Shown here in pieces: positions 2,294 to 56,436 of a stretch of DNA of 64,000 bases; within the stretch, counting starts at the first letter, position 1; every line of letters starts with the position of its first letter. This DNA comes from Escherichia phage vB_EcoM-E33, in sequence record OL780484.1; one strand, written 5' to 3'. The position numbers were made by a program, and so were the translations under genes. Below the pieces are notes generated by a model. The model saw only the letters and a list, made by a program, of their open reading frames with translations, had not been told where the DNA came from and searched no databases.

Positions 2294-2343
2294 GTTTACA
2301 TCTCCTGTAGTCATGATACTATAGACCTATCAACTACAGGAGA
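2294..2343 (+). promoter_or_regulatory. early promoter (GTTTAC 2294-2299, TACTAT 2317-2322) with 10-bp inverted repeat TCTCCTGTAG/CTACAGGAGA covering the denV SD
   Basis: -35/-10 spacing 17 with TG extended -10; arms at 2301-2310 and 2334-2343. Confidence 0.6.
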
Positions 2344-2349
2344 TTAAAA

Positions 2350-2766
2350 ATGACTCGTATCAACCTTACCTTAGTATCTGAATTGGCTGACCAACACTTA
2401 ATGGCTGAATATCGTGAATTACCACGTGTTTTCGGTGCAGTTCGTAAGCATGTTGCTAATGGTAAACGTGTCCGTGATTTCAAAATCAGTCCTACTTTTA
2501 TCCTTGGCACAGGCCATGTTACATTCTTTTACGATAAGCTTGAATTTTTACGTAAGCGACAAATTGAGCTTATAGCCGAATGTTTAAAACGTGGTTTTAA
2601 TATCAAGGATACTACTGTCCAGGACATTAGTGACATTCCTCAGGAATTCCGTGGTGACTATACTCCACACGAAGCTTCTATTGCTATATCTCAGGCCCGT
2701 TTGGACGAAAAAATTGCACAACGCTCTACCTGGTACAAACATTACGGCAAGGCTATTTACGCTTAA
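2350..2766 (+). CDS. denV: endonuclease V (pyrimidine dimer DNA glycosylase)
   Basis: 138 aa; near-identical to remembered T4 endonuclease V ([28 protein letters not shown]...). Confidence 0.95.
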
Positions 2767-2808: not shown

Positions 2809-3168
2809 ATGAAAACTTACCAACAATTTATTACTGAATCTACTCAGCGCATTAACGAAGCTATGTCTCCTGAACAATTGGCTAAGGCCAAAGAAGGGCT
2901 GAACCCATCTGAAGTTTTTAAAGTTACAGGTAAAGACTTTGCTTCCATGGCCACTAACCAGAGCTTGGCTAAAGAACTTAAATCTAAATCTAACTTCATT
3001 CATGCTACATGGAATGGTGATTCTCTTACTTCAATAAGTGTGTACAATAAAAAAGGTCTCCTTAAGAGTTCTTATGGCGCGGATGCCATCCGTGTTTCTA
3101 AATCAGATTGGCATAAAAACACTACTAAAGCAGAAAAACCTCATAACCCGGCACTAGACCATCTTTAA
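2809..3168 (+). CDS. internal head protein (Ip) with capsid targeting sequence
   Basis: N-terminus MKTYQQFITEST; 119 aa; first ~36 nt shared with the next gene. Confidence 0.65.
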   Translation: MKTYQQFITESTQRINEAMSPEQLAKAKEGLNPSEVFKVTGKDFASMATNQSLAKELKSKSNFIHATWNGDSLTSISVYNKKGLLKSSYGADAIRVSKSDWHKNTTKAEKPHNPALDHL

Positions 3169-5104: not shown

Positions 5105-5154
5105 GTTTACATCTCCTGTAGACGTGGTACTATAGACCTATCAACTACAGGAGA
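5105..5154 (+). promoter_or_regulatory. early promoter (GTTTAC 5105-5110, TG-n-TACTAT 5128-5133) with inverted repeat TCTCCTGTAG/CTACAGGAGA covering the regB SD
   Basis: Same architecture and arms as 2294-2343. Confidence 0.6.
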
Positions 5155-5161
5155 TTACAAA

Positions 5162-5620
5162 ATGTCAGAAATTAATTCAGAAGTATTCATCCGCCGCAAT
5201 AAATTACGTCGTCAGTTCGAAACCGAATTCCGTGAACTGAATACGTCCATCAAAAAAGCCGCCATCAAGAGCGGAGTCCCAGCCTTCTTTATTAAGTACT
5301 CTAATCACTTGTTGGACCGTGCTATCCAACGTGAAATCGACGAAAAATACGTTTTTGCTTTATTCAAGCAACTCCATAACCATGTTAAAGAAATTCATGA
5401 ATTTTTAATCCAGGAACCTCTACCTGATGTAGAATCCGAAATTGTCCCTGGTAAAGTGTATCGTCCATTGCGTCTCGAAATTACCGATAAAACCTTATGG
5501 CTAGGTATGACAGTAGACCGTAAACATCCTGATAAAGGATATTCCCTTAAATGTCGTATGGCATTTGTTAACTCTAAACGTTTAGAAGGTAAAACCAGCA
5601 CGAAAGTAATCTATCTTTAA
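5162..5620 (+). CDS. regB: RegB site-specific endoribonuclease
   Basis: 152 aa; EVFIRRNKLRR...HLLDRAIQREIDE...RLEITD matches remembered T4 RegB; T4-like position. Confidence 0.75.
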   Translation: MSEINSEVFIRRNKLRRQFETEFRELNTSIKKAAIKSGVPAFFIKYSNHLLDRAIQREIDEKYVFALFKQLHNHVKEIHEFLIQEPLPDVESEIVPGKVYRPLRLEITDKTLWLGMTVDRKHPDKGYSLKCRMAFVNSKRLEGKTSTKVIYL

Positions 5621-7177: not shown

Positions 7178-7347
7178 GTCTGAGTAAAGAACAGAAAGAT
7201 AAATTGTTTGAGCTTATCCATGAGCTTATGGAACTCAACATAGAATGTGAATTTGATAACTCTCTGGATTGGGATTGGAGAGGTGGTGAAGAGGATGAGT
7301 TTTCTAAAAAGGAAAATGAATTAATTGCTTATGTAAATAGTCTTTAA
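7174..7347 (+). CDS. hypothetical acidic protein
   Basis: ATG overlapping upstream TGA; 57 aa. Confidence 0.4.
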   Translation: MSLSKEQKDKLFELIHELMELNIECEFDNSLDWDWRGGEEDEFSKKENELIAYVNSL

Positions 7348-7356
7348 GAAGGTAAT

Positions 7357-7929
7357 ATGGCTCAACTTTATTTTCATTATGCGGCGATGAATTCCGGGAA
7401 AACCGCTTCATTGCTAACGGCAGCTCATAACTACAAAGAACGTGGTATGGGCGTACTCCTTTTAAAGCCTGCGATAGACAATAGAGAATCAAGCCATAGC
7501 ATTTCGTCTCGTATAGGGATTAGTCAAGAGGCTAATGCCGTGACTCCGGATATGGACCTATACGAGTTCTATCGTTGGGCTGAATCTCAAAAAGATATCC
7601 ACTGCGTATTTGTGGATGAAGCACAGTTCTTAGAACCTGCACAGATAAAACAACTGGCAAAGATAGTAGACAATTATAATGTTCCGGTTATGTGCTATGG
7701 GCTAAGAACTGATTTTCAGGGTAAACTGTTTCCTGGCTCTGCTGAATTACTCGCTACGGCAGATAAACTCGTTGAGTACAAAGGTGTGTGCCATTGTGGC
7801 CGTAAAGCTACTATGACTGCTAGGGTCCAGGATGGTATCGCAATTAAGGACGGCGCCCAAGTTTCTATAGGTGGCAACGATTCTTACGTGTCATTGTGCA
7901 GGAAGCACTGGATAGAAATAACGAGTTGA
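7357..7929 (+). CDS. tk: thymidine kinase
   Basis: 190 aa; P-loop AAMNSGKTASLL, VPVMCYGLRTDF, CHCGRKATMTAR zinc motif; close to remembered T4 Tk. Confidence 0.9.
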   Translation: MAQLYFHYAAMNSGKTASLLTAAHNYKERGMGVLLLKPAIDNRESSHSISSRIGISQEANAVTPDMDLYEFYRWAESQKDIHCVFVDEAQFLEPAQIKQLAKIVDNYNVPVMCYGLRTDFQGKLFPGSAELLATADKLVEYKGVCHCGRKATMTARVQDGIAIKDGAQVSIGGNDSYVSLCRKHWIEITS

Positions 7930-8971: not shown

Positions 8972-8976
8972 TCAAA

Positions 8977-9002
8977 GGTCTCACTTCGGTGGGACCTTTT
9001 TT
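8977..9002 (+). terminator. rho-independent terminator
   Basis: GGTCTCAC-ttcg-GTGGGACC hairpin followed by T6. Confidence 0.7.
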
Positions 9003-9011
9003 CGTTTAGGT

Positions 9012-9040
9012 GTTTACATCCTCTAGGAACATGATACTAT
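9012..9040 (+). promoter_or_regulatory. early promoter (GTTTAC ... TGATACTAT)
   Basis: -35 GTTTAC 9012-9017, extended -10 9035-9040; conserved block ATGATACTATAGACCTATCAA. Confidence 0.55.
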
Positions 9041-9068
9041 AGACCTATCAACTAATGAGGAGAACAGT

Positions 9069-9305
9069 ATGAAACTTACAAGTACTACGGTTTCATTAGA
9101 ATATGAAATCAACGGTCGTATCCTTGAGATTAAGATATTCGACGACCGAAGTATCTTCGCTGATTATCGAGGATACAGAATTCGTCTAGAAAAGGACGAG
9201 CTCAAGGAACCGTGGCTCCTTAAAGACACATTAAAGGGATGTGGATGTAAACTGAATACAGCCCAGGCCCAGGAATTGATTTCTAACATTAACAAATATT
9301 GGTGA
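9069..9305 (+). CDS. hypothetical protein
   Basis: 78-aa ORF downstream of promoter. Confidence 0.45.
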   Translation: MKLTSTTVSLEYEINGRILEIKIFDDRSIFADYRGYRIRLEKDELKEPWLLKDTLKGCGCKLNTAQAQELISNINKYW

Positions 9306-9492: not shown

Positions 9493-9749
9493 TGGCTGTC
9501 GGTTTTGCGAAGGATGGAGCCGAACAGCTCGAAATGGAAGCTGTTGTACAAGCCGCTATCACCCATGCGAGAGCACAAGTGGCTGTTGAACGTGAATCCT
9601 CTGAATTCTGTTTTGACTGCGACGAAAAAATTCCTGAAGCGCGGAGACAAGCGATTAAAGGTGTGATATATTGTGTTGGTTGTCAATCAATGCATGATAA
9701 AATTTTTAAACGTGAGCCACGAAATTGTTGGCACAGGAGCATGAGATGA
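9492..9749 (+). CDS. TraR/DksA-family C4 zinc-finger protein
   Basis: CFDCDEKIPEARRQAIKGVIYCVGCQ matches TraR/DksA zinc-finger signature. Confidence 0.5.
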   Translation: MAVGFAKDGAEQLEMEAVVQAAITHARAQVAVERESSEFCFDCDEKIPEARRQAIKGVIYCVGCQSMHDKIFKREPRNCWHRSMR

Positions 9750-10619: not shown

Positions 10620-11078
10620 ATGATTATCAATGCAAACTCTTGGCATGTTAAACTACATGACCGTTTTTATGCCAGTTATTCACGTCCGCGCTCATTATGC
10701 GCATACTTCTGGAAAATGGTTTGGGCGTGCTTTATATGTTCTGTGCTTGCAGGTAGTACTATTTTCGGCTTAACTGTTGCAGGTGCCGGTATATTGGAGC
10801 AGTTCTTTGTATTGAGTACTCCTGTTGGTTTAAGTTTAGGTTTTATTTTAGGACTGGTTACACTAGCTCTTATTCTAGCGGTAGCCGTTGGTATTGTGTA
10901 TTGTATAATGAATTTATGGTCCTGGTATGATTTACGTAAAGAAGAAAAGGAATGGCTACTAATTAAAGCTAAACGTGAAGGAAAGGAAATTAAAGAAAAT
11001 ATCGTTATTCAATATATCAAAGCTCGTAAATCTAAGGTCTGCCCTGTAATCCACTTCGAGAACAAAACAAACCCATAA
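10620..11078 (+). CDS. hypothetical multi-pass membrane protein
   Basis: 152 aa with several hydrophobic helices. Confidence 0.5.
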   Translation: MIINANSWHVKLHDRFYASYSRPRSLCAYFWKMVWACFICSVLAGSTIFGLTVAGAGILEQFFVLSTPVGLSLGFILGLVTLALILAVAVGIVYCIMNLWSWYDLRKEEKEWLLIKAKREGKEIKENIVIQYIKARKSKVCPVIHFENKTNP

Positions 11079-11842
11079 TGAATTATACCAAGCTTTATGA
11101 TAGTCTAATCCAAAGAGGTAAACTTAGAGGATTAGACAAATCCAAATTAAATTTTTATACAGAGTCCCATCATATACTCCCATCATGTATTGGTGGGAGT
11201 GATGAACCTAATAATTTAGTTCTGTTGACAGCCAGAGAACATTTTATAGCACACTGGCTTCTAGCTAGAATTCATTCTGATTCTTCTGGACTAATTTATG
11301 CTTGGTGGTCGTTTTATAGCTTCGGTGAGGATTCTCTAGGAAGAAATCTTAAACTAACTTCTAGAGGATACCAATTAGTTAGAGAAAAATTTTCAGAAAT
11401 TCATTCAAATGCGATGAAAGAAATATGGAAGACTGAAGAGTATAGAAATAAACGTTCTATAACTATGAGTCTACCGGAAATAAAAGATAAAATGTCTGCC
11501 GCTCAAATAGAAGCTCAAAACCGTCCTGAAGTTAAAGAGAAAATTTCTAAAGCTATTAAAGAAGCATTTAAACGCCCTGATGTTAGAGAAAGGCATTCTA
11601 ATGCTGTTAAGAAATCTCTAAATAATCCGGAAACTAAAAAGAGGCAATCTGATGCTTCTAAAGCAAAGCAAAGAATAGGAAAACATTGGCAAGATTATGA
11701 TTTGCTTTATTCTTTATGGGTTAAATTAAATAGGCCTAAGCGTGGGGCTTTTGGTACTTATATTAGTAAATTAGGATATCCCAAATCTAACTACCAACGT
11801 TTAATTATGCAATTTATTGAAGACTATGAAAGAGGTGAATAA
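11078..11842 (+). CDS. Mob-type HNH homing endonuclease
   Basis: HNH motif ESHHILPSCIGGSDEPNNLVLLTAREH; repeated basic NUMOD-like C-terminal motifs; paralog of 46719-47375; T4 mobD-like position. Confidence 0.7.
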   Translation: MNYTKLYDSLIQRGKLRGLDKSKLNFYTESHHILPSCIGGSDEPNNLVLLTAREHFIAHWLLARIHSDSSGLIYAWWSFYSFGEDSLGRNLKLTSRGYQLVREKFSEIHSNAMKEIWKTEEYRNKRSITMSLPEIKDKMSAAQIEAQNRPEVKEKISKAIKEAFKRPDVRERHSNAVKKSLNNPETKKRQSDASKAKQRIGKHWQDYDLLYSLWVKLNRPKRGAFGTYISKLGYPKSNYQRLIMQFIEDYERGE

Positions 11843-12859: not shown

Positions 12860-13048
12860 ATGAAGGTCTTTTTATCATATGGAAGACCCCATAAAACCCG
12901 ACGTTGGTATCTTGAAGCTGTCTGTAAAGAAACCGGACGTCGAGTCAATATCAAGTACGCATGCAAACCTACGCCTAAACAGACAAGACGATTTGTTAAC
13001 TGGGCTGTAAATGATATCCGCTTCTATAATTTTTGGAGCGCAATTTAG
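12860..13048 (+). CDS. small basic hypothetical protein
   Basis: 62 aa from ATG 12860, just after the nucleotidyltransferase stop. Confidence 0.35.
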   Translation: MKVFLSYGRPHKTRRWYLEAVCKETGRRVNIKYACKPTPKQTRRFVNWAVNDIRFYNFWSAI

Positions 13049-13069
13049 GAACCTTCGGGTTCCTTTTTT
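13048..13069 (+). terminator. rho-independent terminator
   Basis: GGAACC-ttcg-GGTTCC followed by T6. Confidence 0.7.
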
Positions 13070-13088
13070 GGGTTTAGTGCAAAAAGGT

Positions 13089-13117
13089 GTTTACAACCTC
13101 GTAGAGCATGATACTAT
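13089..13117 (+). promoter_or_regulatory. early promoter (GTTTAC ... TGATACTAT)
   Basis: -35 13089-13094, -10 13112-13117, conserved ATGATACTATAGACCTATCAA block. Confidence 0.55.
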
Positions 13118-13165
13118 AGACCTATCAAATAAATGAACTGAAACAACTTAAAACGGAGATACAAA

Positions 13166-13420
13166 ATGAATATTAAAGCACCTTTCGCCGGTAATGTTAT
13201 TCGTGAAGATTCAATCGAAATCAACGGTGTGGTAGTTAAAGCGGTTTTAACTGATATCAAAACCTTGGTTAAAGTTGATTACTTAACCTTTAATTTCGAA
13301 AACATTGAAGGTTATATTAATTTCCCACCAAGCATTAAAATGCATGTACGCCATGAAACTTGGTCTAAAGCAGATCAGCAAAAAGCAGTAGATTTTATTA
13401 TTGAGTTCTTCTCAAAATAA
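13166..13420 (+). CDS. hypothetical protein
   Basis: 84-aa ORF. Confidence 0.45.
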   Translation: MNIKAPFAGNVIREDSIEINGVVVKAVLTDIKTLVKVDYLTFNFENIEGYINFPPSIKMHVRHETWSKADQQKAVDFIIEFFSK

Positions 13421-13488
13421 GTGTGTACATATGCTTTAAACGTGTTATTATAGACCTATCAAATCTACTGAGTGAAATGGAGAATATA

Positions 13489-14469
13489 ATGTTAACTATC
13501 AAAATCAACAAAGGTATCTATCGCGGTAATGAAATCTCTGGTACGTTCATGAGTTCAGGTAAAACCTGGTTCCCTAATAAAATTCATGAATCCGAAGCTC
13601 ACCTCGGTGATGGCAAGGTATTCGTACAGATTGATGGTGTTGAACGTGGTGTATGGGTGTTCAAATGTGACGTTGAAATGGAAGGTGCTGAAGCTCCTGC
13701 AGTTGTTACTGAATCCGCTGAAGAAATGAAACATCGCATTAACAAACGTTTTAAAGTAATGAACATGATGACTAATGGAATCATCGATGGTAAAATTCGT
13801 TCCCTTATCATCTCTGGTGCCGCAGGTATTGGTAAAACGTATTCTTTGGATAAAGCATTACAGAATGCCCACGAAAATGAAACTATCGAATATAAATCAA
13901 TCAACGGAAAGATTAGTGGAATCGGTCTTTACGAGCAGCTTTGGAATAACCGCGGCCCTAATAGTGTTCTTCTTATTGATGATGTTGATGTATTCTCTGA
14001 TATGGATATCCTGAACCTGTTAAAAGCAGCATTGGATACTGGTGAAAAACGTAAGGTGTGCTGGAGCACTTCAAGTTCTTATCTTGATGATAAAAATATC
14101 GATAAAGAATTTGAGTATGAAGGCACCATCGTGTTCATCACCAACGTTGATATTGACCGTGAATTAGAGCGTGGAACTAAACTTGCTCCACACCTCCAGG
14201 CTTTAGTATCGCGTTCAGTTTACTTAGACCTCGGAGTTCACTCGAACGAAGAGATTATGGTTCGTGTTGAAGACGTTATCCTGTCCACTGATATGATGCA
14301 AAACCGTGGTCTGACTGATGCCGAGACTTACCAAGCTTTAGCATGGATGAAGGCTAATGTATCTCGTCTTCGTAACGTATCATTACGTACAGCTCTTTAT
14401 CTGGCGGACTTCATTGCCACCGATAAAAATGACTGGAGCGAAATCGCTGAAGTTACACTTCTGAAATAA
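13489..14469 (+). CDS. AAA-type P-loop ATPase
   Basis: Walker A GAAGIGKT, Walker B VLLIDDVD; start at ATG 13489 after GGAG SD. Confidence 0.55.
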   Translation: MLTIKINKGIYRGNEISGTFMSSGKTWFPNKIHESEAHLGDGKVFVQIDGVERGVWVFKCDVEMEGAEAPAVVTESAEEMKHRINKRFKVMNMMTNGIIDGKIRSLIISGAAGIGKTYSLDKALQNAHENETIEYKSINGKISGIGLYEQLWNNRGPNSVLLIDDVDVFSDMDILNLLKAALDTGEKRKVCWSTSSSYLDDKNIDKEFEYEGTIVFITNVDIDRELERGTKLAPHLQALVSRSVYLDLGVHSNEEIMVRVEDVILSTDMMQNRGLTDAETYQALAWMKANVSRLRNVSLRTALYLADFIATDKNDWSEIAEVTLLK

Positions 14470-14822: not shown

Positions 14823-14872
14823 GTTTACATCTCCAGTAGAAATGATACTATAGACCTATCAACTACTGGAGG
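14823..14872 (+). promoter_or_regulatory. early promoter (GTTTAC, TACTAT) with inverted repeat TCTCCAGTAG/CTACTGGAGG covering the SD
   Basis: Arms carry compensatory changes relative to 2301-2343 (CTGTAG/CTACAG -> CAGTAG/CTACTG). Confidence 0.6.
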
Positions 14873-14877
14873 TTAAC

Positions 14878-15402
14878 ATGAACGCTAAAGATATTTTTTC
14901 ACTCATCAATTATAACAATGGTAATTTCAAATCCGAAAAACAAAGCAAGTTCTTTAACGACGTTGCTTGTGGTAATGAGATTACTGTATCTGGAGGAGAG
15001 ATTTACAAAAGCCGTTGGAACTGGATTGTTGTCATCGATTCAGTTGGTATTGTAGAGCTCTATAAAAACACTAACAAAAAACGTACTCTTCACTGGAGTC
15101 GTGAAACCAATCAAGCTTATCAAGCTGAACGTAACAAACGTTTAATGCCTACCGAATCTGACCTGGCAAACGTTAAATCTGATATCGCTTATTTCGATAA
15201 TCTGATTGCTGAACAACAAGCTGTTATTGATAAGTTTGACGAAATCAAAGCTTGTAAAGAGATTCCTGAATTCATGCGGGAATCAGTAAACGAACAGTAC
15301 GCCCTCACTTCAGGTCGTATCGAGCAGTACAAATCACAACGAGCTGAACGCCAAGCTCTGCTTCAGAAATTTGAAGAGCGTTTAAAGACGGTTCTCGCAT
15401 AA
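14878..15402 (+). CDS. hypothetical protein with helical C-terminal tail
   Basis: 174-aa ORF behind early promoter. Confidence 0.5.
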   Translation: MNAKDIFSLINYNNGNFKSEKQSKFFNDVACGNEITVSGGEIYKSRWNWIVVIDSVGIVELYKNTNKKRTLHWSRETNQAYQAERNKRLMPTESDLANVKSDIAYFDNLIAEQQAVIDKFDEIKACKEIPEFMRESVNEQYALTSGRIEQYKSQRAERQALLQKFEERLKTVLA

Positions 15403-20070: not shown

Positions 20071-21144
20071 ATGCAAGATTTCGGACATTGGGCGGTATTT
20101 GAAGAAACCGATATTAAAAACCATATTGGATTTGTATACGTAATCACTTTTGAAGATGGCAAAAAATATGTGGGTGCTAAAAAGATTTGGAAACGAATTA
20201 AAGCTGCACCTTGCACATTTAAACGCGGCCCTAAAAAAGGATTTGAAGAATCTGATTGGAAAACCTATACCTCATCATCTAATGAACTAAACGCAATGAT
20301 AGAAAAGGGTATAAGTCCTAAAGAGTACCTTATTGTAGGATGGTATCCTACTTGGGGTAAAACTCTTATGGCAGAAATGGAAATGCAATTAGCCAATGAT
20401 GTTTTACGAGACCCTATGTGGCTTAACAAGCAAATTGGCGGACATTTCAACCCTAACTGCTTTGACGATTTAACCGAAGATGATATTGCAAGATGGATGG
20501 AATTTGATAAAGGGAACGAACATGTTTCCTGGCCTATGATGTACAAAATCGGTCAGAAAACCAAATATGTTAAACCTGACGAAGTTGGCAAGTATATTAA
20601 ATCTGGGTGGCAATTTGGTCGTTCTAAAACAGAAAAACATTCTGTTACCTATAATTGCTCTAAATTTACTATATGGGACTATCAAGAAAATAAAGCAGTG
20701 GAAGTTCTAAATCAAAATGAGTTTGCTCGTAATAATGATTTAAGTAGCAACCATCTAACTAGACTACTTCAAGGAACTCTCGACCTTATTAAAGATCGCT
20801 GGGGACTTCCACCAGATATTGCTCGTCAGCGTTATAAATTTCAGGACGTTTCTTCAGGAACAAAATTTTTATCTAATTCTGAGTTAGAAGAATTTTACGG
20901 TATGACTCGCGGTCAGGCTAACAAAGCCGTTAAAGATGGAAGAGCCGTTAAATTGGTAGTCGAAAGCAAAGAAGACCACATTAAAAAACTTGGCTCTATC
21001 GAATTGGTAAAAACCGAAAAGACAAAAGTTACGTCTCAAGTAATGCTTAACAGTTTTAAAGATATAGTTAATCCTATGACCACTGCCGAAAAATCAGAAA
21101 TGATTGAATGGTTGGAAAGTTATATAACTTATTTGAAATCTTAA
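20071..21144 (+). CDS. GIY-YIG-like (Seg-type) putative homing endonuclease
   Basis: GFVYVITFEDGKKYVGAKK...WKR has GIY-x10-YIG spacing followed by basic residues; 357 aa. Confidence 0.4.
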   Translation: MQDFGHWAVFEETDIKNHIGFVYVITFEDGKKYVGAKKIWKRIKAAPCTFKRGPKKGFEESDWKTYTSSSNELNAMIEKGISPKEYLIVGWYPTWGKTLMAEMEMQLANDVLRDPMWLNKQIGGHFNPNCFDDLTEDDIARWMEFDKGNEHVSWPMMYKIGQKTKYVKPDEVGKYIKSGWQFGRSKTEKHSVTYNCSKFTIWDYQENKAVEVLNQNEFARNNDLSSNHLTRLLQGTLDLIKDRWGLPPDIARQRYKFQDVSSGTKFLSNSELEEFYGMTRGQANKAVKDGRAVKLVVESKEDHIKKLGSIELVKTEKTKVTSQVMLNSFKDIVNPMTTAEKSEMIEWLESYITYLKS

Positions 21145-22093: not shown

Positions 22094-22145
22094 ATTTACT
22101 TCCTCTCCTCACGTGTTATAGTCTATCCTATCAACACATGAGGAG
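22094..22145 (+). promoter_or_regulatory. early promoter (ATTTAC, TATAGT) with inverted repeat CTCCTCACGTGTT/AACACATGAGGAG covering the SD
   Basis: 13-bp arms with one mismatch flank the -10. Confidence 0.5.
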
Positions 22146-22151
22146 AACATT

Positions 22152-22334
22152 ATGACTATCCAAGATAAAGAAATTAAAGCCGACCAGTATTATTTGGTAA
22201 ATGGCTACCCTGTTCAAGTAACAAAGGTAACAAATCTCGATGTATGGTATCAACCTTTGACTCACCCTGATGCTCCATTGATGGTGTGCGACCGTTCTTT
22301 ATTTTGTTCAGTAGCTAAGGAAATTAAATCATGA
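22152..22334 (+). CDS. hypothetical protein
   Basis: 60-aa ORF. Confidence 0.4.
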   Translation: MTIQDKEIKADQYYLVNGYPVQVTKVTNLDVWYQPLTHPDAPLMVCDRSLFCSVAKEIKS

Positions 22335-25743: not shown

Positions 25744-25774
25744 AAATCTATGAAATACATTATAAAGGTAGATT

Positions 25775-26797
25775 ATGAAAATTTTGAATATAGGTGATTT
25801 GCATATCGGAGTAAAAGCCGATGACCCTTGGATTCAGGAAATCCAGCTTAACGGTATTAAACAGGCTGTAGAATATTCTAAAGCAAACAATATTGATACA
25901 TGGATTCAATATGGTGATTGGTTCGATGTACGCAAGGCTATCACCCATAAATGTATGGAATTTAATCGTGGTCTGGTGGAAATTATCAGCGATGCAGGTA
26001 TTAAAGTCCATGTTATAATTGGTAACCATGATGCAACGTTTAAAAATAGCATAACTCCTAATGCGGTTTCTGAACTTCTTACTCAGTATGAAAATTTTAC
26101 TGTTTACGAGAAACCTACTACGGTTAATTTTGATGGCACCGAAATTGATTTGATTCCATGGATGTGTGAAGAAAACACGACCGATATCATGGACCATATC
26201 AAAAATACTACAGCAGATTTCTGCATTGGCCACTGGGAATTAAATGGTTTCTATTTCTATAAAGGAATGAAATCACATGGTTTAGAACCTGATTTCCTTA
26301 AGAAGTATAAGCAAGTATGGTCTGGTCACTTCCACACCATTTCTGATGCAGCAAACGTCAAGTATATTGGTACGCCATGGACCCTGACTGCAGGTGATGA
26401 GAACGACCCTCGTGGCTTCTGGATTTTCGATACAGAAACCCATAAAATGGATTTCATCATCAATGAAACTTGTTGGCACCGTAAGATTCATTATCCAAAC
26501 GCGACTATCGATTACAAAGATTTTACAAATATCGCAGTTCGTGTTATAGTCGATAAAATTGATGACGGTCTTACTAAGTTCGAATCAGAGCTTGAAAAGG
26601 TTGTCCACTCTTTACGTATCGTGTCTAAGGTAGATAACAGTGTTGATATCGATGATTCTGAAGAGGAAGATGAAGTTAAGTCCCTCTTGGATATAATGTA
26701 TGATTATATCGATGCCCTTCCTGATGGCCACACTGAAGACGATGTTAAAGCCCTTAAGACTATGGCCGCACAACTTTATAATGAGGTTACACGATGA
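25775..26797 (+). CDS. 47: recombination endonuclease subunit gp47 (Mre11-like)
   Basis: 340 aa; calcineurin-like phosphoesterase motifs GDLH, GNHD; followed by gp46 as in T4. Confidence 0.85.
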   Translation: MKILNIGDLHIGVKADDPWIQEIQLNGIKQAVEYSKANNIDTWIQYGDWFDVRKAITHKCMEFNRGLVEIISDAGIKVHVIIGNHDATFKNSITPNAVSELLTQYENFTVYEKPTTVNFDGTEIDLIPWMCEENTTDIMDHIKNTTADFCIGHWELNGFYFYKGMKSHGLEPDFLKKYKQVWSGHFHTISDAANVKYIGTPWTLTAGDENDPRGFWIFDTETHKMDFIINETCWHRKIHYPNATIDYKDFTNIAVRVIVDKIDDGLTKFESELEKVVHSLRIVSKVDNSVDIDDSEEEDEVKSLLDIMYDYIDALPDGHTEDDVKALKTMAAQLYNEVTR

Positions 26798-27057
26798 CTT
26801 TAGATGAATTCAAAAAATCAGGCCTTGAACTAGAACACGACTGCATCGTTATTGATGACGATAACCAAACGAATATCATTAAGTTCTGGTTTGAAGCCGT
26901 GAGCACTCGCGATACCAACGAGCTTATTAAAGTTTATGTTGCTACTGATTGGGCTGTAGAATTTAGCTTTAATGTAATGGTAGATGATACTCCAGAAACA
27001 TTAATTCATATGGCTGAATCATGCATCAAGGATGCTTATAATGACGAAAATGTATAA
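26794..27057 (+). CDS. hypothetical acidic protein
   Basis: 87-aa ORF. Confidence 0.45.
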   Translation: MTLDEFKKSGLELEHDCIVIDDDNQTNIIKFWFEAVSTRDTNELIKVYVATDWAVEFSFNVMVDDTPETLIHMAESCIKDAYNDENV

Positions 27058-27256
27058 ACATGATTTTCATATTGGCGATGGCTGGTTCGGTAATGTAGAA
27101 TGGGACGTGGATGGTTCTTGGTATACCGGAACTATGTATGTCACTTCTGGATATTCTGAAGGTGTTTCATGGGCCATGGAACTTGACGACGTGTTTGCTT
27201 CTTCCGAAGAAATGCTAGAATATGCCGAACAAACAATTCGTGAGAACAATACATGA
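27041..27256 (+). CDS. hypothetical acidic protein
   Basis: 71 aa; start at ATG 27041 after AAGGA. Confidence 0.4.
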   Translation: MTKMYKHDFHIGDGWFGNVEWDVDGSWYTGTMYVTSGYSEGVSWAMELDDVFASSEEMLEYAEQTIRENNT

Positions 27257-31913: not shown

Positions 31914-32276
31914 ATGATTGAAATTACTCTGAAACAACCTGAAGACTTCTTGAAAGTGAAAGAGACCCTAACTCGTATGGGTATCGCTAATAATAAAGAA
32001 AAGAAACTATATCAATCCTGCCACATTCTGCAAAAGCAAGGGCTATACTATATCGTCCACTTTAAAGAGATGTTGCGTATGGATGGCCGCCAAGTTGATA
32101 TCGATGGTGAAGACTACCAACGTCGTGATTCAATTGCCCAGCTTCTTAAGGAGTGGGGACTGATTGATATAGTAGACGACTCTGAGCTGTTCGAAATCAC
32201 TAATAATTTCCGTGTCATTTCCTTTAAGCAGAAAAATGACTGGGAACTACTGTCTAAGTATACCATTGGTAATTAA
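31914..32276 (+). CDS. regA: translational repressor RegA
   Basis: 120 aa; MIEITLKxPEDFLKVKETLTRMGIANNK...YYIVHFKEMLRMDGRQV matches remembered T4 RegA. Confidence 0.9.
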   Translation: MIEITLKQPEDFLKVKETLTRMGIANNKEKKLYQSCHILQKQGLYYIVHFKEMLRMDGRQVDIDGEDYQRRDSIAQLLKEWGLIDIVDDSELFEITNNFRVISFKQKNDWELLSKYTIGN

Positions 32277-32277
32277 T

Positions 32278-32493
32278 ATGATTCTTGAAATTGAAACGTG
32301 TGAACGTCTTAAAGAGGTATACGGACTTTCTCCAACTCAAACGATTTTTGACCTTTCCGAAGAGCTCCAAATAGAATTTCAAAAGGACCTCCAAAAGTTA
32401 CTACATCCTGGCCAGCAAGTCTTCCAGGCTATGATTAAAACTAAAGACGAAGATGGTAATTCAACTATTAAACGTCAGACAATAGAAATTTAA
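32278..32493 (+). CDS. hypothetical protein
   Basis: 71 aa from ATG 32278, one nt after regA stop. Confidence 0.35.
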   Translation: MILEIETCERLKEVYGLSPTQTIFDLSEELQIEFQKDLQKLLHPGQQVFQAMIKTKDEDGNSTIKRQTIEI

Positions 32494-43434: not shown

Positions 43435-43454
43435 GGAGCTTCGGCTCCTTTTTT
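43435..43454 (+). terminator. rho-independent terminator
   Basis: GGAGC-ttcg-GCTCC followed by T6. Confidence 0.7.
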
Positions 43455-43463
43455 GTTTTAAGG

Positions 43464-43492
43464 GTTTACATCTCCTGTAGGCGTGATACTAT
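43464..43492 (+). promoter_or_regulatory. early promoter (GTTTAC ... TGATACTAT)
   Basis: -35 43464-43469, -10 43487-43492, conserved block. Confidence 0.55.
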
Positions 43493-43516
43493 AGACCTAT
43501 CAACTTGGAGAACAAA

Positions 43517-43834
43517 ATGAAAACCATCGACTGTAAAGCAGAATATAAAGTGTATTATCATGGAAGTTGTAGTGTTGCTAATATCGGTAATATGCTTTGT
43601 CCTCCTGAGGAAACAGGAGTTCTGTCTGAAACCAGTCGTAAGAAAAACCTGAATCGTGTGTTCTTTACTGAAGATATCGGTTTGGCTAAGATTTATGCTG
43701 GACGTGCAGCCCGTTCAGTGGGAGGAGAACCTCGTCTTTATCGTGTAATTGCTCCGGTAGATGTGGTTTGTTTAAATGATACTAAAGGCGCTACGGTTTA
43801 TCATGCTGAATGGGCCTTCTGTGAGGAAATCTAA
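43517..43834 (+). CDS. hypothetical protein
   Basis: 106 aa from ATG 43517 after GGAGA SD; lies between 41 and dmd. Confidence 0.45.
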   Translation: MKTIDCKAEYKVYYHGSCSVANIGNMLCPPEETGVLSETSRKKNLNRVFFTEDIGLAKIYAGRAARSVGGEPRLYRVIAPVDVVCLNDTKGATVYHAEWAFCEEI

Positions 43835-44040: not shown

Positions 44041-44070
44041 GTTTACATCAAAGGGATAATGCAGTATATT
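44041..44070 (+). promoter_or_regulatory. early promoter (GTTTAC ... TATATT) with inverted repeat GGGATAAT/ATTATCCC
   Basis: -35 44041-44046, -10 44065-44070. Confidence 0.5.
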
Positions 44071-44098
44071 ATCCCTATCAACTACCGAGGAGAACATT

Positions 44099-44392
44099 AT
44101 GAAAAAGTTATTAATCGCAGCAATTCTTGCCGTAGCATCATGTGGTACAGCCCCAGTTACTGCTGGACTTGATAAAGACCTTTGTGAATGGTCTATGACT
44201 GCAGACCAAGAATCAGTCGAACATCAGATTTATGCTGATATCATGAACATCACTAAACGTGACCGCCCTGATATGGTTAAAGAAGTGTCAGACCAATTGG
44301 CTTCAAGCGGCGTTATGCAGTATAACTATGTTCTGTATTGTGACGCTAATTTCGATAACAAAAACATCGTTAAAGAGGTGACAGGTGAATAA
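44099..44392 (+). CDS. Spackle-like periplasmic protein
   Basis: 97 aa with signal peptide/lipobox VASC; size and position match T4 sp (61.3). Confidence 0.4.
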   Translation: MKKLLIAAILAVASCGTAPVTAGLDKDLCEWSMTADQESVEHQIYADIMNITKRDRPDMVKEVSDQLASSGVMQYNYVLYCDANFDNKNIVKEVTGE

Positions 44393-46718: not shown

Positions 46719-47375
46719 ATGAATTACGAAAAAATATACCAGGAATTAATATCTAAAGGAAAATTAAGAGGTTCTAAGCGGTCTTTATCATATTATACGG
46801 AAGAACACCATGTTATACCTAGATGTATGAATGGTTCTGATGATAAAAACAATTTAGTTGCTTTATTGCCAAGAGAACACTTTGTAGCTCATAGGCTTTT
46901 AACAAAAATATATCCCGAAGTAAAAGGTCTACATTATGCTGTTAATTTAATGAGATATAATAAAGGAGTTAAATTAACTAGTAGAACTATAGCCACGTTA
47001 AGAGAAAATAACGCTAAAGCATTTTCAGGAAAAAATAACCCGATGTTTGGTAAACCTTCCTGGATTAGAGGGATGAAAACTCCTGAAGAAACTAAAGCCA
47101 AAATGCGCCTGGCTCATAAAGATAAAATTATATCTGATGAAGCCAAGGCCAATATGAGTAAAGCTAGAAAAGGAAGATTTAGTGGTAAAGATTCCCCTAG
47201 ATATGGTTTGCCGAATCCTAGGCGTGGAGAAATATGGAATAGTTACGATATGCTTTACGAATTATGGGTTTACAATAATAAACCTAAACGCACCAAATTT
47301 AATAAAATAGCTGTTGATAATGGATATCCTGATATTTGTTATCGACGAATGATAGAAAACTTTAATAGGAAATAA
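46719..47375 (+). CDS. Mob-type HNH homing endonuclease
   Basis: HNH motif EEHHVIPRCMNGSDDKNNLVALLPREH; NUMOD3-like GKNNPMFGK; AT-rich; paralog of 11078-11842. Confidence 0.7.
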   Translation: MNYEKIYQELISKGKLRGSKRSLSYYTEEHHVIPRCMNGSDDKNNLVALLPREHFVAHRLLTKIYPEVKGLHYAVNLMRYNKGVKLTSRTIATLRENNAKAFSGKNNPMFGKPSWIRGMKTPEETKAKMRLAHKDKIISDEAKANMSKARKGRFSGKDSPRYGLPNPRRGEIWNSYDMLYELWVYNNKPKRTKFNKIAVDNGYPDICYRRMIENFNRK

Positions 47376-47379
47376 TATA

Positions 47380-47901
47380 ATGGCATTTTTTAACGAATGT
47401 AGTGGTTTGATTTCTGGTGTTGATAAAGCTGAGGAAGCTTATTTTAATGCTCTGATTCATGAAGATAAAGACCCTCTGCAGGTTATGCTTGATATGCAGA
47501 AATCATTACAGGTCCGTTTGGCTACTGAAAAATCTGAATTTAACTCTAACCCCGATGAACTGGCTACTGCAGGTCAAGTTGTCGATTGGCTTCGCAACCA
47601 GAAAGATTATATTGATGACGAATTCCGTGAACTGTTGACTTCTCTTGGTGGCATGAGTAATGGTGAGAAAGCCGCATCTAGCGTCTGGAAGCCTTGGAAA
47701 GCTCAGCACGGTGAATTCCGTAACCGTCGTATTGACGAACTCTCTCCTGAAGACCAGCTTGAAATTAAATTCGAGATGATTGATATTCTGCACTTTGTTC
47801 TGAATATGTTCCAAGGTCTTGGTCTGTCAGCCGAAGAAATCTTTAAGTTGTATTACCTGAAAAACGCTGAGAACTTTGCTCGTCAAGACCGAGGTTATTA
47901 A
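47380..47901 (+). CDS. 56: dCTP pyrophosphatase gp56 (MazG-like all-alpha NTP-PPase)
   Basis: 173 aa; DDEFRELL and EMIDILHFVL resemble MazG-type motifs; T4-like position next to 61. Confidence 0.6.
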   Translation: MAFFNECSGLISGVDKAEEAYFNALIHEDKDPLQVMLDMQKSLQVRLATEKSEFNSNPDELATAGQVVDWLRNQKDYIDDEFRELLTSLGGMSNGEKAASSVWKPWKAQHGEFRNRRIDELSPEDQLEIKFEMIDILHFVLNMFQGLGLSAEEIFKLYYLKNAENFARQDRGY

Positions 47902-48041
47902 TGCCTCGTTTAAATAAACGTCAACTAAAAAAGTTGAATAAGAAAAGGGCGAAAGCCTTTACTGCCTTATTACGTAATGAAATAACTAAAGAAATAGACC
48001 AAGAGATTATTGAACAACTTTGGAAAGCCGCCAAATTGTAA
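47901..48041 (+). CDS. small basic hypothetical protein (46 aa)
   Basis: TAATG overlap with gp56 stop; not in ORF track. Confidence 0.3.
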   Translation: MPRLNKRQLKKLNKKRAKAFTALLRNEITKEIDQEIIEQLWKAAKL

Positions 48042-49982: not shown

Positions 49983-50034
49983 TTTTACACCTCCTCCCTT
50001 CATGTTATAATGACCTCTAAATCACTGGAGGTCA
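49983..50034 (+). promoter_or_regulatory. early promoter (TTTTAC ... TATAAT 50006-50011) followed by inverted repeat TGACCTC/GAGGTCA containing the SD
   Basis: 7-bp arms at 50011-50017 and 50028-50034; SD GGAGGT lies in the 3' arm. Confidence 0.5.
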
Positions 50035-50035
50035 T

Positions 50036-50605
50036 ATGAACATCGAACAAAAATGTCTTTATCAAGACCGAATCAATTCCAAATTCTCAAAACACGAACA
50101 GAATCTTTTAGAAAAATGTCTGGATGCTAAAAAAGACCCTAACTTCCATTACGACCTTGACAAACTGGTTCGCAAGCATGTTACTTCAGCGGTTCCAGTA
50201 GAGTTGTATCGTGGGATTACCACCAGAGAACTTGAGCAATTAGAGCTCCTTTCAGTAGGGTGTCAATGGTCTCCTGGTCGAGTTACTTCTTTTAGTACAC
50301 AATACTCTCAGGCTCGTCAGTTCGCAGGGGCGTGGGAATATGGAACCAAAACCATTTTAAGTCTCAGGAATGCACCGTTCATTTTCGACTACTACAACCA
50401 TGCTATAGACCTTGTTCTTGCAGGGAATGTAGACGCCCTTGAAATTGATGAAACTCGTATTGACCTCTATGATATGGTCGAAACTGAATGTGAGTTCATG
50501 GTCTCTAGCCAATCGCGATTTGAGATTGTTGCAATCGAAACCGTCAAAAGAGACCCGTATGATATCGAGTACAAAACAATTCATTTAAAAATGTTGGATT
50601 TTTAG
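50036..50605 (+). CDS. Mod-type ADP-ribosyltransferase (ModA/ModB family)
   Basis: R-S-E motifs: LYRGI, SFS, ECEF; tandem paralog of the next gene; T4 mod-like position. Confidence 0.55.
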   Translation: MNIEQKCLYQDRINSKFSKHEQNLLEKCLDAKKDPNFHYDLDKLVRKHVTSAVPVELYRGITTRELEQLELLSVGCQWSPGRVTSFSTQYSQARQFAGAWEYGTKTILSLRNAPFIFDYYNHAIDLVLAGNVDALEIDETRIDLYDMVETECEFMVSSQSRFEIVAIETVKRDPYDIEYKTIHLKMLDF

Positions 50606-51343: not shown

Positions 51344-51372
51344 GTTTACTTTATCAAGCAACATGATACTAT
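51344..51372 (+). promoter_or_regulatory. early promoter (GTTTAC ... TGATACTAT)
   Basis: -35 51344-51349, -10 51367-51372. Confidence 0.55.
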
Positions 51373-51414
51373 AGACACCTATCAACTAATCGTCCGTAAG
51401 ATGAGAAAAATACC

Positions 51415-52149
51415 ATGACCCCTGAATTTGAATTAAAGGTTTACAAACGTCGCGAACACACTAAAGCCTCTGCCAAAAAACGTGGTAAGGACTTCAATCT
51501 GTCTAGTAATTATGTTCGTAGACTTCTCGAACAAAAAGTGTGTGCTTATTCAGGCGAACGTTTTGATGAGAATTCAGTTAGTGATAAGATTTCATTTGAA
51601 CGTTTTAATAATGATATTGGTTATATCGAAGGTAATGTAATCCCAGTTAAAGTCAAGTACAATAGCTTACGTGCTGATTTGTCTTTAGATGAATTGAAAC
51701 GTGCACAGACTCGTTTAGCGTCCCGTATTTCAGGTGGTTCTAAAATGCCTAATAGTTTTAAAGTTACCCCAGATAATTATTATAAAATTCGTAAAATAGT
51801 TAAAAATATTAAAGATACCCAAAGAGGTCTTAAAAAGCGTGAAAAACGTCTTAAGGACCTTATTAAATCAGGAGCTACTGATAAGACCCCTTCTGTCATC
51901 GCGGTTAAGGCCCGTATCCATGGTTCTAACGCTTCAATAGGTACTATGGAAAAGGGTCTTAAATCTTTAATTGGTGGGCCTGATTGGCGTGTCAAGTTTA
52001 AATTGTCTGAAGCAGAAACGCGTTACGATATGTATGATAAAATTATTCAAGGTCTGGAGCGTTTAGAACACCTTTCTTTTATTGACAAAATGAAGTTGAA
52101 AAAAGGTCTTCCGCTGAATGCTTCAATTTTTTCACTGATTAGAGGTTAA
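51415..52149 (+). CDS. hypothetical protein (Srd-position)
   Basis: 244 aa between mod genes and dda, where T4 has srd; sequence not recognised. Confidence 0.4.
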   Translation: MTPEFELKVYKRREHTKASAKKRGKDFNLSSNYVRRLLEQKVCAYSGERFDENSVSDKISFERFNNDIGYIEGNVIPVKVKYNSLRADLSLDELKRAQTRLASRISGGSKMPNSFKVTPDNYYKIRKIVKNIKDTQRGLKKREKRLKDLIKSGATDKTPSVIAVKARIHGSNASIGTMEKGLKSLIGGPDWRVKFKLSEAETRYDMYDKIIQGLERLEHLSFIDKMKLKKGLPLNASIFSLIRG

Positions 52150-54700: not shown

Positions 54701-54751
54701 GTTTACTTCTCCTCATGACATGATATTATCTACCCTATCAACATGAGGAGA
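54701..54751 (+). promoter_or_regulatory. early promoter (GTTTAC, TG-n-TATTAT) with 10-bp inverted repeat TCTCCTCATG/CATGAGGAGA covering the SD
   Basis: Arms at 54708-54717 and 54742-54751; differ in sequence from 2301/2334 but keep complementarity. Confidence 0.6.
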
Positions 54752-54756
54752 ACAAA

Positions 54757-55266
54757 ATGAAAATTTATCGAGTGGAGTCATCGTTCAGTATCTTAGATAA
54801 CAGCGATGTTATAGCAATCACTCACCAACAGTGCCGCCAATTAACACCGTATAGAGGCTCGTTTGATGAATGGAGCGAAGGTTGGTTATTAGAAGTAGGT
54901 TTCGACAAACCTAATTTTAGACACCACCATACCAATAATAAAAATATTCCACTACCAGGTCAAGACAAGTTGTTGGTGGAAAATTCTAATAAAACCATTC
55001 GAACTAAGTGGAACCAGCCTGATTATGAAGGCTGTGATGATTATATTCCAGGTTGGTTTGTTAATCTCTACCATTTTGCTTTTGCCAGTGAGTATGATAT
55101 GATGCGCTGGTTCACTCGTGAAGAGCGTGAAGAATTATCTTCTAAAGGATTCTATCTTGCCGTTTACGAAATCCCTGAAGATGAGGTTGTCATTGGTGGC
55201 CACCAAGTAATGTTCCGCAAATCCCATGCTGAACTCGTAGATTTTATTGAATTGAGAACAATATGA
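54757..55266 (+). CDS. hypothetical protein
   Basis: 169-aa ORF. Confidence 0.45.
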   Translation: MKIYRVESSFSILDNSDVIAITHQQCRQLTPYRGSFDEWSEGWLLEVGFDKPNFRHHHTNNKNIPLPGQDKLLVENSNKTIRTKWNQPDYEGCDDYIPGWFVNLYHFAFASEYDMMRWFTREEREELSSKGFYLAVYEIPEDEVVIGGHQVMFRKSHAELVDFIELRTI

Positions 55267-55813: not shown

Positions 55814-55849
55814 GTTTACTTTATCGAGAGCCATGTTATAATGGCTCTC
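55814..55849 (+). promoter_or_regulatory. early promoter (GTTTAC ... TATAAT) inside inverted repeat GAGAGCCAT/ATGGCTCTC
   Basis: -35 55814-55819, -10 55837-55842. Confidence 0.5.
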
Positions 55850-55884
55850 ATGGAGAATAAACTTATTAACCAAGAGAGAAAATT

Positions 55885-56436
55885 ATGATTACTATCGGTG
55901 AAATTGTTCGTGTATCCAAAGAATCTCGCTCAAAAGCCGCGGGTCGTTTTGTTGAAGTTGCTGGTATTCGTACTAATTTAGTAGGTGGAATTAAAGAAGT
56001 TAAAGTGCGTATTATTCCTAAAAATGGCCAGACTGAAACTCAATTCGCTTATGTGCATCCTAAATTCCTGGAATCAACTGAATTCACTGGACACATCGCT
56101 CCTGTAGTTGAAGAAGTTGAATCCCATGATGGGTATGTATGTGAAAGCAATGATATCCGTGGCGTAGTAGCTCAAGACGTTGAAACTATTGACCAATCTC
56201 ATGTTGGTGTTGATTTCAAATGGAAATTAGGTAAAGGTGTCTTTTTCGTTTCACCTAAACCGTTTGAATACAATTGCAAGTATGGTCCGACTTATGAAAC
56301 CACTAGTATGTCCGGTTACATCACAGACCAATGGGTTGAAGAAGGTGTTAAGCTGTATAACATCGTGTTCCTTGGCACCTTTAAAGTAGTTCCTGAAAGT
56401 TTTATTGTTGAGTACGCTGATATTCATTTTGCATAA
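55885..56436 (+). CDS. hypothetical protein (paralog B)
   Basis: C-terminal TDQWVEEGVKLYNIVFLGTFKVVP shared with the previous gene. Confidence 0.45.
   Translation: MITIGEIVRVSKESRSKAAGRFVEVAGIRTNLVGGIKEVKVRIIPKNGQTETQFAYVHPKFLESTEFTGHIAPVVEEVESHDGYVCESNDIRGVVAQDVETIDQSHVGVDFKWKLGKGVFFVSPKPFEYNCKYGPTYETTSMSGYITDQWVEEGVKLYNIVFLGTFKVVPESFIVEYADIHFA

Follow-up and report, generated by a model that had tools for sequence, protein, structure and literature searches.

Repeated promoter cores in the early region of vB_EcoM-E33

We analyzed a 64,000-nucleotide (nt) stretch of DNA from Escherichia phage vB_EcoM-E33 (sequence record OL780484.1), hereafter the window, in which a 21-bp block, ATGATACTATAGACCTATCAA, recurs in front of several genes. 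By megablast the window belongs to the genus Dhakavirus (Straboviridae, Tevenvirinae), with 93-98% identity to IME341, QL01, ABTNLS3, LQ5, PSD9, and others. Its long open reading frames (ORFs) all lie on the + strand, and in the relatives' annotation the gene order runs nudE, e, denV, regB, tk, rI, the nrdC cluster, and gene 55, followed by 47/46/45/44/62, regA, 43, uvsX, 41, 61, 56, modA/B, srd, dda, dexA, motB, 39, and rIIA/rIIB. This gene content corresponds to a T4-type genome's classical early and middle region. About 21 early-type promoters occupy intergenic positions, and eight of these carry the 21-mer block. The names given here to the genes at the copies are taken from the annotation of relatives (ABTNLS3 and QL01 for regB); a Pfam scan assigned no family to the ORFs 3' of the core copies, and an Rfam scan of the whole window identified no family at the gathering score.

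A motif search of the window located the 21-mer exactly at 2313, 9031, 13108, and 14842, and with mismatches at 43483 (one), 5124 (two), and 13442 (three), always on the + strand; a further variant with a 2-base insertion, ATGATACTATAGACACCTATCAA, lies at 51363-51385, for a total of eight copies or close variants. The minus strand of the window contains neither a copy of the motif nor a co-located feature. Chance origin was rejected, with 0 matches in 100 dinucleotide-preserving shuffles. A preliminary description of this DNA had reported at least seven near-identical copies of a 21-bp promoter core, and this repetition is borne out: its coordinates fall within 1 base of those above, its seventh site (~51364) is the genuine variant with the insertion, and the copy at 13442 was absent from its list. 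The interval 13089-13132, on which that description centered, spans from the -35 hexamer to about +4 of the predicted transcript of one copy. Six of the eight copies are found within the first 15 kb, a stretch rich in small ORFs and indels. Beyond the window, complete Dhakavirus genomes in IMG/VR contain the 16-mer ACTATAGACCTATCAA ~11-17 times each, on a single strand in every case; beyond genomes of Dhakavirus size its matches in IMG/VR are single and near the chance level for a 16-mer.

The copies share one layout, consisting of GTTTACA, a 16-nt spacer ending in TGn, TACTAT or TATTAT, AGACC, TATCAA, a Shine-Dalgarno (SD) sequence (GGAG or GAGG), and ATG (coordinates in Table 1). The -35 element reads GTTTAC(A/T) in seven of eight copies and GTGTACA in the copy at 13424, while TG stands one base 5' of TACTAT or TATTAT in all eight. 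The ATG lies 45-75 nt past the -35, and every copy is in coding-strand orientation. A separate consensus scan flagged each copy as a sigma-70-type site with TG before the -10. An A-rich stretch at about -38 to -46 is present in most copies; it is short, and in three of them it overlaps the T-run of a terminator.

These features are those of T4 early promoters, for which the published T4/PST consensus is TTTACW-N17-TAYWAT (PMC4122927), matched by the window copies, and the design is described as "UP/-35/TGn/-10" with a consensus that reaches beyond these elements (Hinton 2010, PMC2988021). Shared with T4 are GTTTAC(A/T), the 16-17 nt spacer, TGn, a TAnnAT -10, in most copies a short A-rich upstream stretch, and the position before early genes; the difference is one of number, as the TACTAT-AGACC-TATCAA version occurs 13-16 times per Dhakavirus genome and once in T4. 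The T4 denV promoter reads GTTTACATCTCCTGTAGGTATGATACTATAGACCTATCAACTACAGGAGA, in which the 21-mer and both flanking arms are identical to copy 1, and the homologous site in Yersinia phage fPS-90 is annotated "promoter". The anatomy of the copies thus agrees with the preliminary assignment of the block to a promoter core comprising an extended -10 and an initial transcribed region, and the block appears to be a T4-type early promoter segment in front of early genes. We infer the start of transcription to be the A of cTATCAA, 7 nt past the -10; a literature search located no map of transcription start sites for T4 or Dhakavirus.

Stem-loops over the -10 element and their covariation

In the copies at 2313, 5124, and 14842, the spacer just past the -35 (TCTCCTGTAG or TCTCCAGTAG) is the reverse complement of the SD-containing 5' untranslated region (CTACAGGAGA or CTACTGGAGG), the arms of copy 6 being a compensatory variant of those of copy 1. 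An inner stem, TGATA/TATCA, lies inside the 21-mer itself and closes the loop CUAUAGACC. When promoters were folded from the end of the -35 to the start codon and compared with dinucleotide shuffles, 7 of the 20 folded had z ≤ -4 (Table 1). Four of these seven, at 22095, 54702, 55815, and 49984, are not core copies, and the sequences of their arms are entirely different.

Pairing is specific to the individual promoter. Across 26 promoters of the window and T4, the spacer pairs with its own downstream 32 nt at a mean of -11.2 kcal/mol versus -7.2 kcal/mol with the downstream segments of other promoters; restriction to 18 non-redundant promoters gave -11.7 and -7.4 kcal/mol, and 0 of 20,000 permutations gave an own value as low. 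Nine Mosigvirus promoters behave likewise (-10.5 own versus -6.8 other, p=0.0006), and their arm pairs, for instance TCTCCTCTGGTT and AACCAGAGGAGA, are new.

Covariation was assessed among 106 unique family members gathered from Dhakavirus genomes. Selection by the 3' arm alone yielded 23 unique sequences, in 20 of which both variable positions of the 5' arm are complementary, and the arms occupy three states (TG/CA, AG/CT, and AT/AT), their complementarity being preserved through double changes. In an alignment of 16 distinct sequences, 96.3% of the cells are paired and two pairs are changed on both sides; only 1 of 500 shuffles was as good, and slid controls were 33-56% paired. Several changes in the arms retain pairing through G-U only, which would be more easily reconciled with sense-strand RNA than with a cruciform in DNA.

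Three of the five core copies that lack a significant hairpin (copies 3, 4, and 7 in Table 1) have a canonical terminator, a stem followed by a T-run, upstream of the promoter; those at 13424 and 51345 lack a terminator as well as a significant hairpin. The Mosigvirus phiEC1 ortholog of copy 7 forms a perfect hairpin, and at the locus of copy 8 the relatives have an uninterrupted core.

Related structures of other geometry were noted in the window and in T4. At the modB promoter (49984-50038, + strand), the hairpin lies wholly within the promoter's own transcript, its stem running from AUGACCUCUA to UGGAGGUCAU and centered on GACCUC/GAGGUC; unlike the spacer-to-SD design elsewhere, this hairpin includes the SD in its pairing and extends to the first bases of the AUG in the promoter-proximal mRNA as well. 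In T4 (NC_000866, 58000-67500), the ipII early promoter contains a perfect 14-bp inverted repeat, TCCTAGAATTGTGA and TCACAATTCTAGGA, flanking the -10, and the ipIII promoter an 8-bp inverted repeat; in both, the loop is essentially the -10 element. A literature search on inverted repeats in T4 early promoters yielded only the PeSL papers considered below and two Virology Journal reviews.

Table 1 Promoter copies, related promoters, and associated features of the window. Hairpins were folded from the end of the -35 to the start codon; SD values are predicted unpaired probabilities in a read-through transcript and in the promoter's own transcript.
Feature	Interval	Strand	-35	21-mer	-10	ATG (gene)	Other parts	Hairpin (kcal/mol)	z	SD unpaired, read-through / own
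Copy 1, denV early promoter cassette	2295..2352	+	TTTACA 2295-2300	2313-2333	TACTAT 2317-2322	2350 (denV)	TGa 2314-2316; predicted +1 A2329; 5' arm TCTCCTGTAG 2301-2310; 3' arm CTACAGGAGA with SD 2334-2343	-19.2	-6.2	0.12 / 0.44
Copy 2, regB early promoter cassette	5106..5164	+	5106-5111	variant GTGGTACTATAGACCTATCAA 5124-5144	5128-5133	5162 (regB)	arms 5112-5121 and 5145-5154	-17.2	-4.1	
Copy 3, intrinsic terminator then early promoter	8974..9071	+	9013-9018	9031-9051	9035-9040	9069 (78-aa ORF, no Pfam match)	terminator 8974-8999 + T-run		-0.03	
Copy 4, intrinsic terminator then early promoter	13047..13168	+	13090-13095	13108-13128	13112-13117	13166 (84-aa ORF)	terminator 13047-13064 + T-run		+1.1	
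84-aa ORF cassette between copies 4 and 5	13166..13420	+					no Pfam family			
Copy 5, weaker variant promoter before nrdC.10	13424..13491	+	TGTACA 13424-13429	variant GTGTTATTATAGACCTATCAA 13442-13462	TATTAT 13446-13451	13489 (nrdC.10)				
Copy 6, nrdC.8 early promoter cassette	14824..14880	+	14824-14829	14842-14862	14846-14851	14878 (nrdC.8)	arms TCTCCAGTAG 14830-14839, CTACTGGAGG 14863-14872	-16.9	-4.2	0.01 / 0.54
Copy 7, terminator-like stem then early promoter, downstream of gene 41	43435..43519	+	43465-43470	variant 43483-43503	43487-43492	43517 (ORF after gene 41)	stem GGAGCTTCGGCTCC 43435-43448 + T-run (terminator to ~43454); 3' arm truncated		-1.05	0.22 / 0.72
Copy 8, before srd	51345..51417	+	TTTACT 51345-51350	variant with 2-nt insertion 51363-51385	51367-51372	51415 (srd)				
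Related early promoter without AGACC block	22095..22154	+					spacer-SD hairpin, arms TCTCCTCACGTGT / ACACATGAGGAGA	-21.1	-5.9	0.15 / 0.59
Related early promoter, motB.2 region	54702..54759	+					spacer-to-SD hairpin, arms TCTCCTCATG / CATGAGGAGA	-18.0	-5.8	0.01 / 0.62
Related early promoter, motB	55815..55887	+					inverted repeat GAGAGCC/GGCTCTC tightly flanking -10	-19.2	-5.0	
Promoter of modB	49984-50038	+						-14.3	-4.3	
Early promoter with variant -35 to -10 half	44042..44101	+					alleles join at CCTATCAAC			

Uniformity of the block and recombination at it

The block had been described as more conserved than promoter function alone needs. When the 21 window promoters (8 core and 13 non-core) were aligned on their -10 hexamers, the 13 non-core promoters kept TTTAC, TG, TAnnAT, and a C-rich run (CCT) just before the start site, and little else. 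TATCA is found 5-7 nt past the -10 in 22 of 39 early promoters from the window, the T4 fragment, and Mosigvirus phiEC1, and the looser TAnCA in 24 of these 39 versus 5.5% of random 16-mers. About 16 of the 21 bases, made up of the 3-nt TGn, the 6-nt -10, and the 6-7 nt start box TATCAA, are consensus parts of T-even early promoters; because these parts are general, the 5-nt discriminator AGACC is the sole family-specific part of the 21-mer. The description of excess conservation is borne out only in part, and part of the extra constraint on the block is supplied by the stem-loop straddling the -10. We also considered whether TATCA is kept mainly as the pairing partner of TGnTA, and rejected this, as it does not covary with n (13 TGA, 4 TGT, and 3 TGG) and keeps a fixed offset in three genera.

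A 60-bp query over copy 1 matched 13-16 places per Dhakavirus genome and 3-7 per Mosigvirus genome (84.7% identity), but only one place, at denV, in T4 and most Tequatrovirus genomes. The regB promoter has a different sequence in T4 and is in Dhakavirus a near copy of the denV cassette, including both arms, and the block is almost invariant at the orthologous loci of six relatives. For these reasons the uniformity of the block appears best explained by paralogy or homogenization of one denV-type cassette on top of the general consensus.

Recombination at the block was examined by chained BLAST alignments against six relatives (ABTNLS3, QL01, LQ5, CLBP2, Ec2, and Esco_phi_B-01), which identified 53 distinct indel or replacement events. 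One clear case involves the 84-aa ORF at 13166-13420: IME341 has the ORF and both flanking copies, whereas QL01, ABTNLS3, LQ5, and CLBP2 lack the ORF and have in its place a single promoter that is a chimera, copy 13108 supplying the -35 and spacer and copy 13442 the TTATTAT -10; the alignments on the two sides overlap by 22-50 bp. Ec2 fills this slot with an unrelated ORF of 76 aa, which follows a terminator and is flanked by two promoters belonging to the family. In the relatives the e-denV interval contains zero, one, or two extra internal-protein (IP) cassettes, whose junctions coincide with the -35 of copy 2313; an early promoter of its own is present in two of the three kinds of IP cassette, and an MKTY.EFI.E leader in all. 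At 44042, the -35 to -10 half of the window promoter differs from that of all six relatives, which carry the core type, and the alleles join at CCTATCAAC. At denV, ABTNLS3 has a promoter that does not belong to the core family, and in rare copies the 5' arm comes from one variant and the 3' arm from another.

In the majority of events neither end has a promoter, for example in those at 9495-9728, 11066-11838, 27048-27253, 32276-32487, and 47901-48039, as well as several homing-endonuclease insertions. A general association of breakpoints with promoters was tried and discarded: the raw excess (21/75 versus 15.8% expected, p=0.005) was due to repeated events at few junctions.

The IP locus offers a second shared sequence. 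The IP-like ORFs at 1895-2293 and 2809-3168 (+ strand) begin MKTY(N/K/Q)(E/Q)FI(A/T)E, the conserved leader of injected internal proteins, and a replacement breakpoint at 2838 falls inside this leader, which makes it a second crossover sequence besides the promoter.

Proposed function, alternatives, and related elements

We consider it probable that the block is an early-promoter segment used by host sigma-70 RNA polymerase within Dhakavirus cassettes of the promoter-early stem-loop (PeSL) type of Arbiol, Comeau, and Krisch, with paralogous spread, a hairpin, and occasional crossover. The host polymerase would bind GTTTACA (-35), TGn, and TACTAT (-10), and transcription would start at the A of cTATCAA, producing a leader with AUCAAC at its 5' end that continues past the SD up to the start codon. 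A transcript from the embedded promoter would lack the 5' arm and leave the SD free, whereas a read-through transcript from upstream would contain both arms, so that the hairpin could fold and mask the SD or attenuate the transcript; the SD unpaired probabilities predicted for five promoters (Table 1) are lower in read-through than in own transcripts. Expression of the gene would thereby follow its own early promoter. The relatives show the shared 30-60 bp serving as occasional crossover points as well, at which small ORF cassettes between copies are deleted, inserted, or exchanged. At 2295, 5106, 14824, 22095, and 54702, the upstream ORF stops just before the -35; because this would place the terminating ribosome over the 5' arm, translational coupling is possible at these five promoters.

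Several observations weigh against this reading in whole or in part. As five of the eight core copies (9013, 13090, 13424, 43465, and 51345) have no significant hairpin, the hairpin cannot explain conservation of the block in every copy. Some natural variants, such as CLBP2 denV, lose a pair without compensation. The hairpins at 55815, at 44042, and in the AGGTCTATAG class leave the SD untouched, so that SD masking is not universal. Over the first 150 nt of denV itself, T4 and the window are 95% identical, and for that reason lateral exchange, rather than long conservation, may account for the denV promoter shared by T4 and Dhakavirus. Promoter junctions show no enrichment of indels (8/19 versus 39/101 other gene junctions, p=0.48), nor do the junctions of core copies show a significant one (5/8 versus 42/112, odds ratio 2.8, p=0.15). 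The start site and the effect of the hairpin are themselves predictions from sequence. The preliminary suggestion that the blocks serve as recombination substrates at gene-content breakpoints thus stands for single cases (the 13108/13442 deletion, the Ec2 swap, the IP locus, the 44042 allele, and the hybrid arms), where individual breakpoints coincide with blocks, and does not extend to the junctions overall; since clear single cases occur without enrichment at the level of junctions, the block appears to be an occasional crossover site, in line with the PeSL model, and not a dominant driver in the window.

The hairpin need not act mainly on translation. That the stem-loop is chiefly an attenuator or terminator, or a stabilizer of the 3' end of the upstream RNA, is a reading we hold improbable as the main account, yet attenuation remains a serious alternative or additional function, because in RB49 the stem-loop of a PeSL blocks read-through and PeSL stem-loops are placed most often between the -35 and -10 or over the -10. 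The PeSL authors proposed this function, and the PeSL211/210 stem-loop of RB49 cut lacZ read-through as strongly as rrnB T1 (PMC2839356); the hairpins that exclude the SD at 55815 and 44042 are also consistent with it. Strong pairing of spacer and downstream sequence was found at 0 of 10 promoters preceded by a terminator and at 17 of 52 others, a weak trend among 62 non-independent promoters (one-sided Fisher p=0.03, Mann-Whitney p=0.21). On the other hand, the hairpins at 2295, 5106, 14824, 22095, and 54702 are not canonical terminators, because A-rich sequence rather than a U-run follows them, and their 3' arms are centered on GGAG or GAGG.

Polymerase contacts together with selection for maximal early strength could alone have kept the 21-mer, with the stem-loops and recombination as by-products. 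This is unlikely in our estimation, although all 21 bp lie inside the RNA polymerase footprint, three genera share the consensus of TGn, -10, and start box, the early promoters of T4 have been characterized as unusually rich in information (PMC2988021), and the lack of a significant hairpin in five of the eight core copies fits it; the other early promoters of the genome vary in discriminator and spacer, with low conservation past the -10 in the non-core set except for CCT, and neither own-downstream pairing nor compensatory arm variants are expected from polymerase contacts. We regard as very improbable that the block or inverted repeat is a protein-binding site, for instance for a factor that shuts off early promoters, or a cruciform cut by endonuclease VII to start recombination. 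The mechanism of T4 early-promoter shut-off is not known (PMC3014915, PMC2988021), the dyad symmetry of TGATA-N9-TATCA with the outer arms would suit such a site, and a protein recognizing the stem-loop was speculated upon by the PeSL authors (PMC2839356). The arms, however, vary between promoters and covary, which argues for selection on pairing and not on a fixed recognition sequence, and the G-U-only pairs work in sense RNA but give A-C mismatches on the other DNA strand. The earlier idea of a factor-binding site accordingly found no support.

Our preferred reading of the block as a PeSL-type early-promoter cassette places it close to known systems. PeSLs are described as early promoters whose stem-loops are most often placed in the -35/-10 interval or across the -10 box, and as mediators of modular shuffling (Arbiol 2010, PMC2839356; Comeau 2014, PMC4122927). 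Like those of RB49/phi1, PST/T4, and nt-1/KVP40, the window elements are composites of early promoter, stem-loop, SD, and ATG repeated in plastic regions, with the stem-loop upstream as a terminator or over the -10, and, in individual cases, with indels or ORF exchanges at or between copies that leave chimeric elements. The window contains such promoters with upstream terminators or with -10 hairpins of z ≤ -4 at six promoters, in many copies and in plastic regions; its elements fit T4 early promoters as defined by sequence and PeSLs as defined by structure. RB49 PeSLs differ in having non-homologous sequences, TTGACA/TATAAT boxes, and G-run/C-run stems, and the window differs from PeSLs in an outer stem typically formed by spacer and SD and in an indel enrichment at junctions that is not significant. 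For JS98, a Dhakavirus, the 2010 PeSL paper mentions PeSL-like sequences only at the gene 43 locus (PMC2839356).

Conserved regulatory repeats between the T-even IP genes were reported by Repoila et al. (1994), as described in PMC2839356. That locus, between e and denV, includes the copy at 2313, and relatives differ there by 0-2 IP cassettes, but the 21-mer family is also present before regB, nrdC.10, nrdC.8, srd, and the gene after gene 41. In T4 e, soc, 49, and I-TevI, a hairpin occludes the ribosome-binding site and contains a promoter (Uzan and Miller 2010, PMC3014915). The predicted window hairpins share with these an SD paired with an upstream arm, an internal promoter, and a free SD in own transcripts only; in the T4 class the internal promoter is late (TATAAATA) and the masked transcripts are early or middle, while in the window it is of the early sigma-70 type. 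The window element is therefore predicted to work like this class without being a member, because its internal promoter is early and not late.

A broader proposal, which we put forward as possible but doubtful, is that T-even early promoters of Tequatrovirus, Mosigvirus, and Dhakavirus are systematically built into covarying spacer-SD hairpins, with efficient translation only from their own transcripts or after melting by a ribosome that finishes the upstream ORF. If true, this would be a general device that keeps immediate-early expression bound to its promoters and silences it once early promoters shut off. No description of spacer-to-SD hairpins at early promoters, or of this 21-mer family, was found in the searchable literature, from which older T4 work is largely absent.

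Outside the promoter family, three ORFs on the + strand distinguish the window from some or all of its relatives. The 357-aa ORF at 20071-21144 has an N-terminal SegE-type GIY-YIG domain (PF19835, E 1e-33) and fills the exact slot of gene 49 (endonuclease VII, 157 aa) in QL01, CLBP2, Ec2, and Esco_phi_B-01; its C-terminus, EMIEWLESYITYLKS, resembles an internal segment of gp49. A tblastn search with QL01 gp49 had no match in the window or in 65-68 kb fragments of ABTNLS3 and LQ5. The 254-aa ORF at 11078-11842 has no Pfam match and is missing in all six relatives, with a clean deletion junction that has a 2-bp overlap and lacks a promoter repeat; of the genomes examined, only this phage appears to have it. 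An HNH/NUMOD3 ORF at 46719-47375 is shared with ABTNLS3 and LQ5 and missing in QL01, CLBP2, Ec2, and Esco_phi_B-01. Relatives also carry endonuclease genes (NUMOD3 in ABTNLS3, HNH in QL01) at positions corresponding to ~7227-7372 and 25760-25775, where the window has none.

The blocks mark the early transcription units of Dhakavirus genomes, in which public records mostly state "hypothetical protein", and they would account in part for the way small early genes, among them those for injected internal proteins that counter host defenses, are gained, lost, and exchanged as cassettes. The most interesting by-product is the presence in three genera of promoter-specific, covarying spacer-SD hairpins, which are close to existing descriptions of PeSLs. 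These hairpins suggest a testable rule tying immediate-early translation to the genes' own promoters, one that bears on the still unexplained rapid shut-off of early expression. Current understanding is not overturned; rather, the PeSL and T4 early-promoter picture is extended to another genus.

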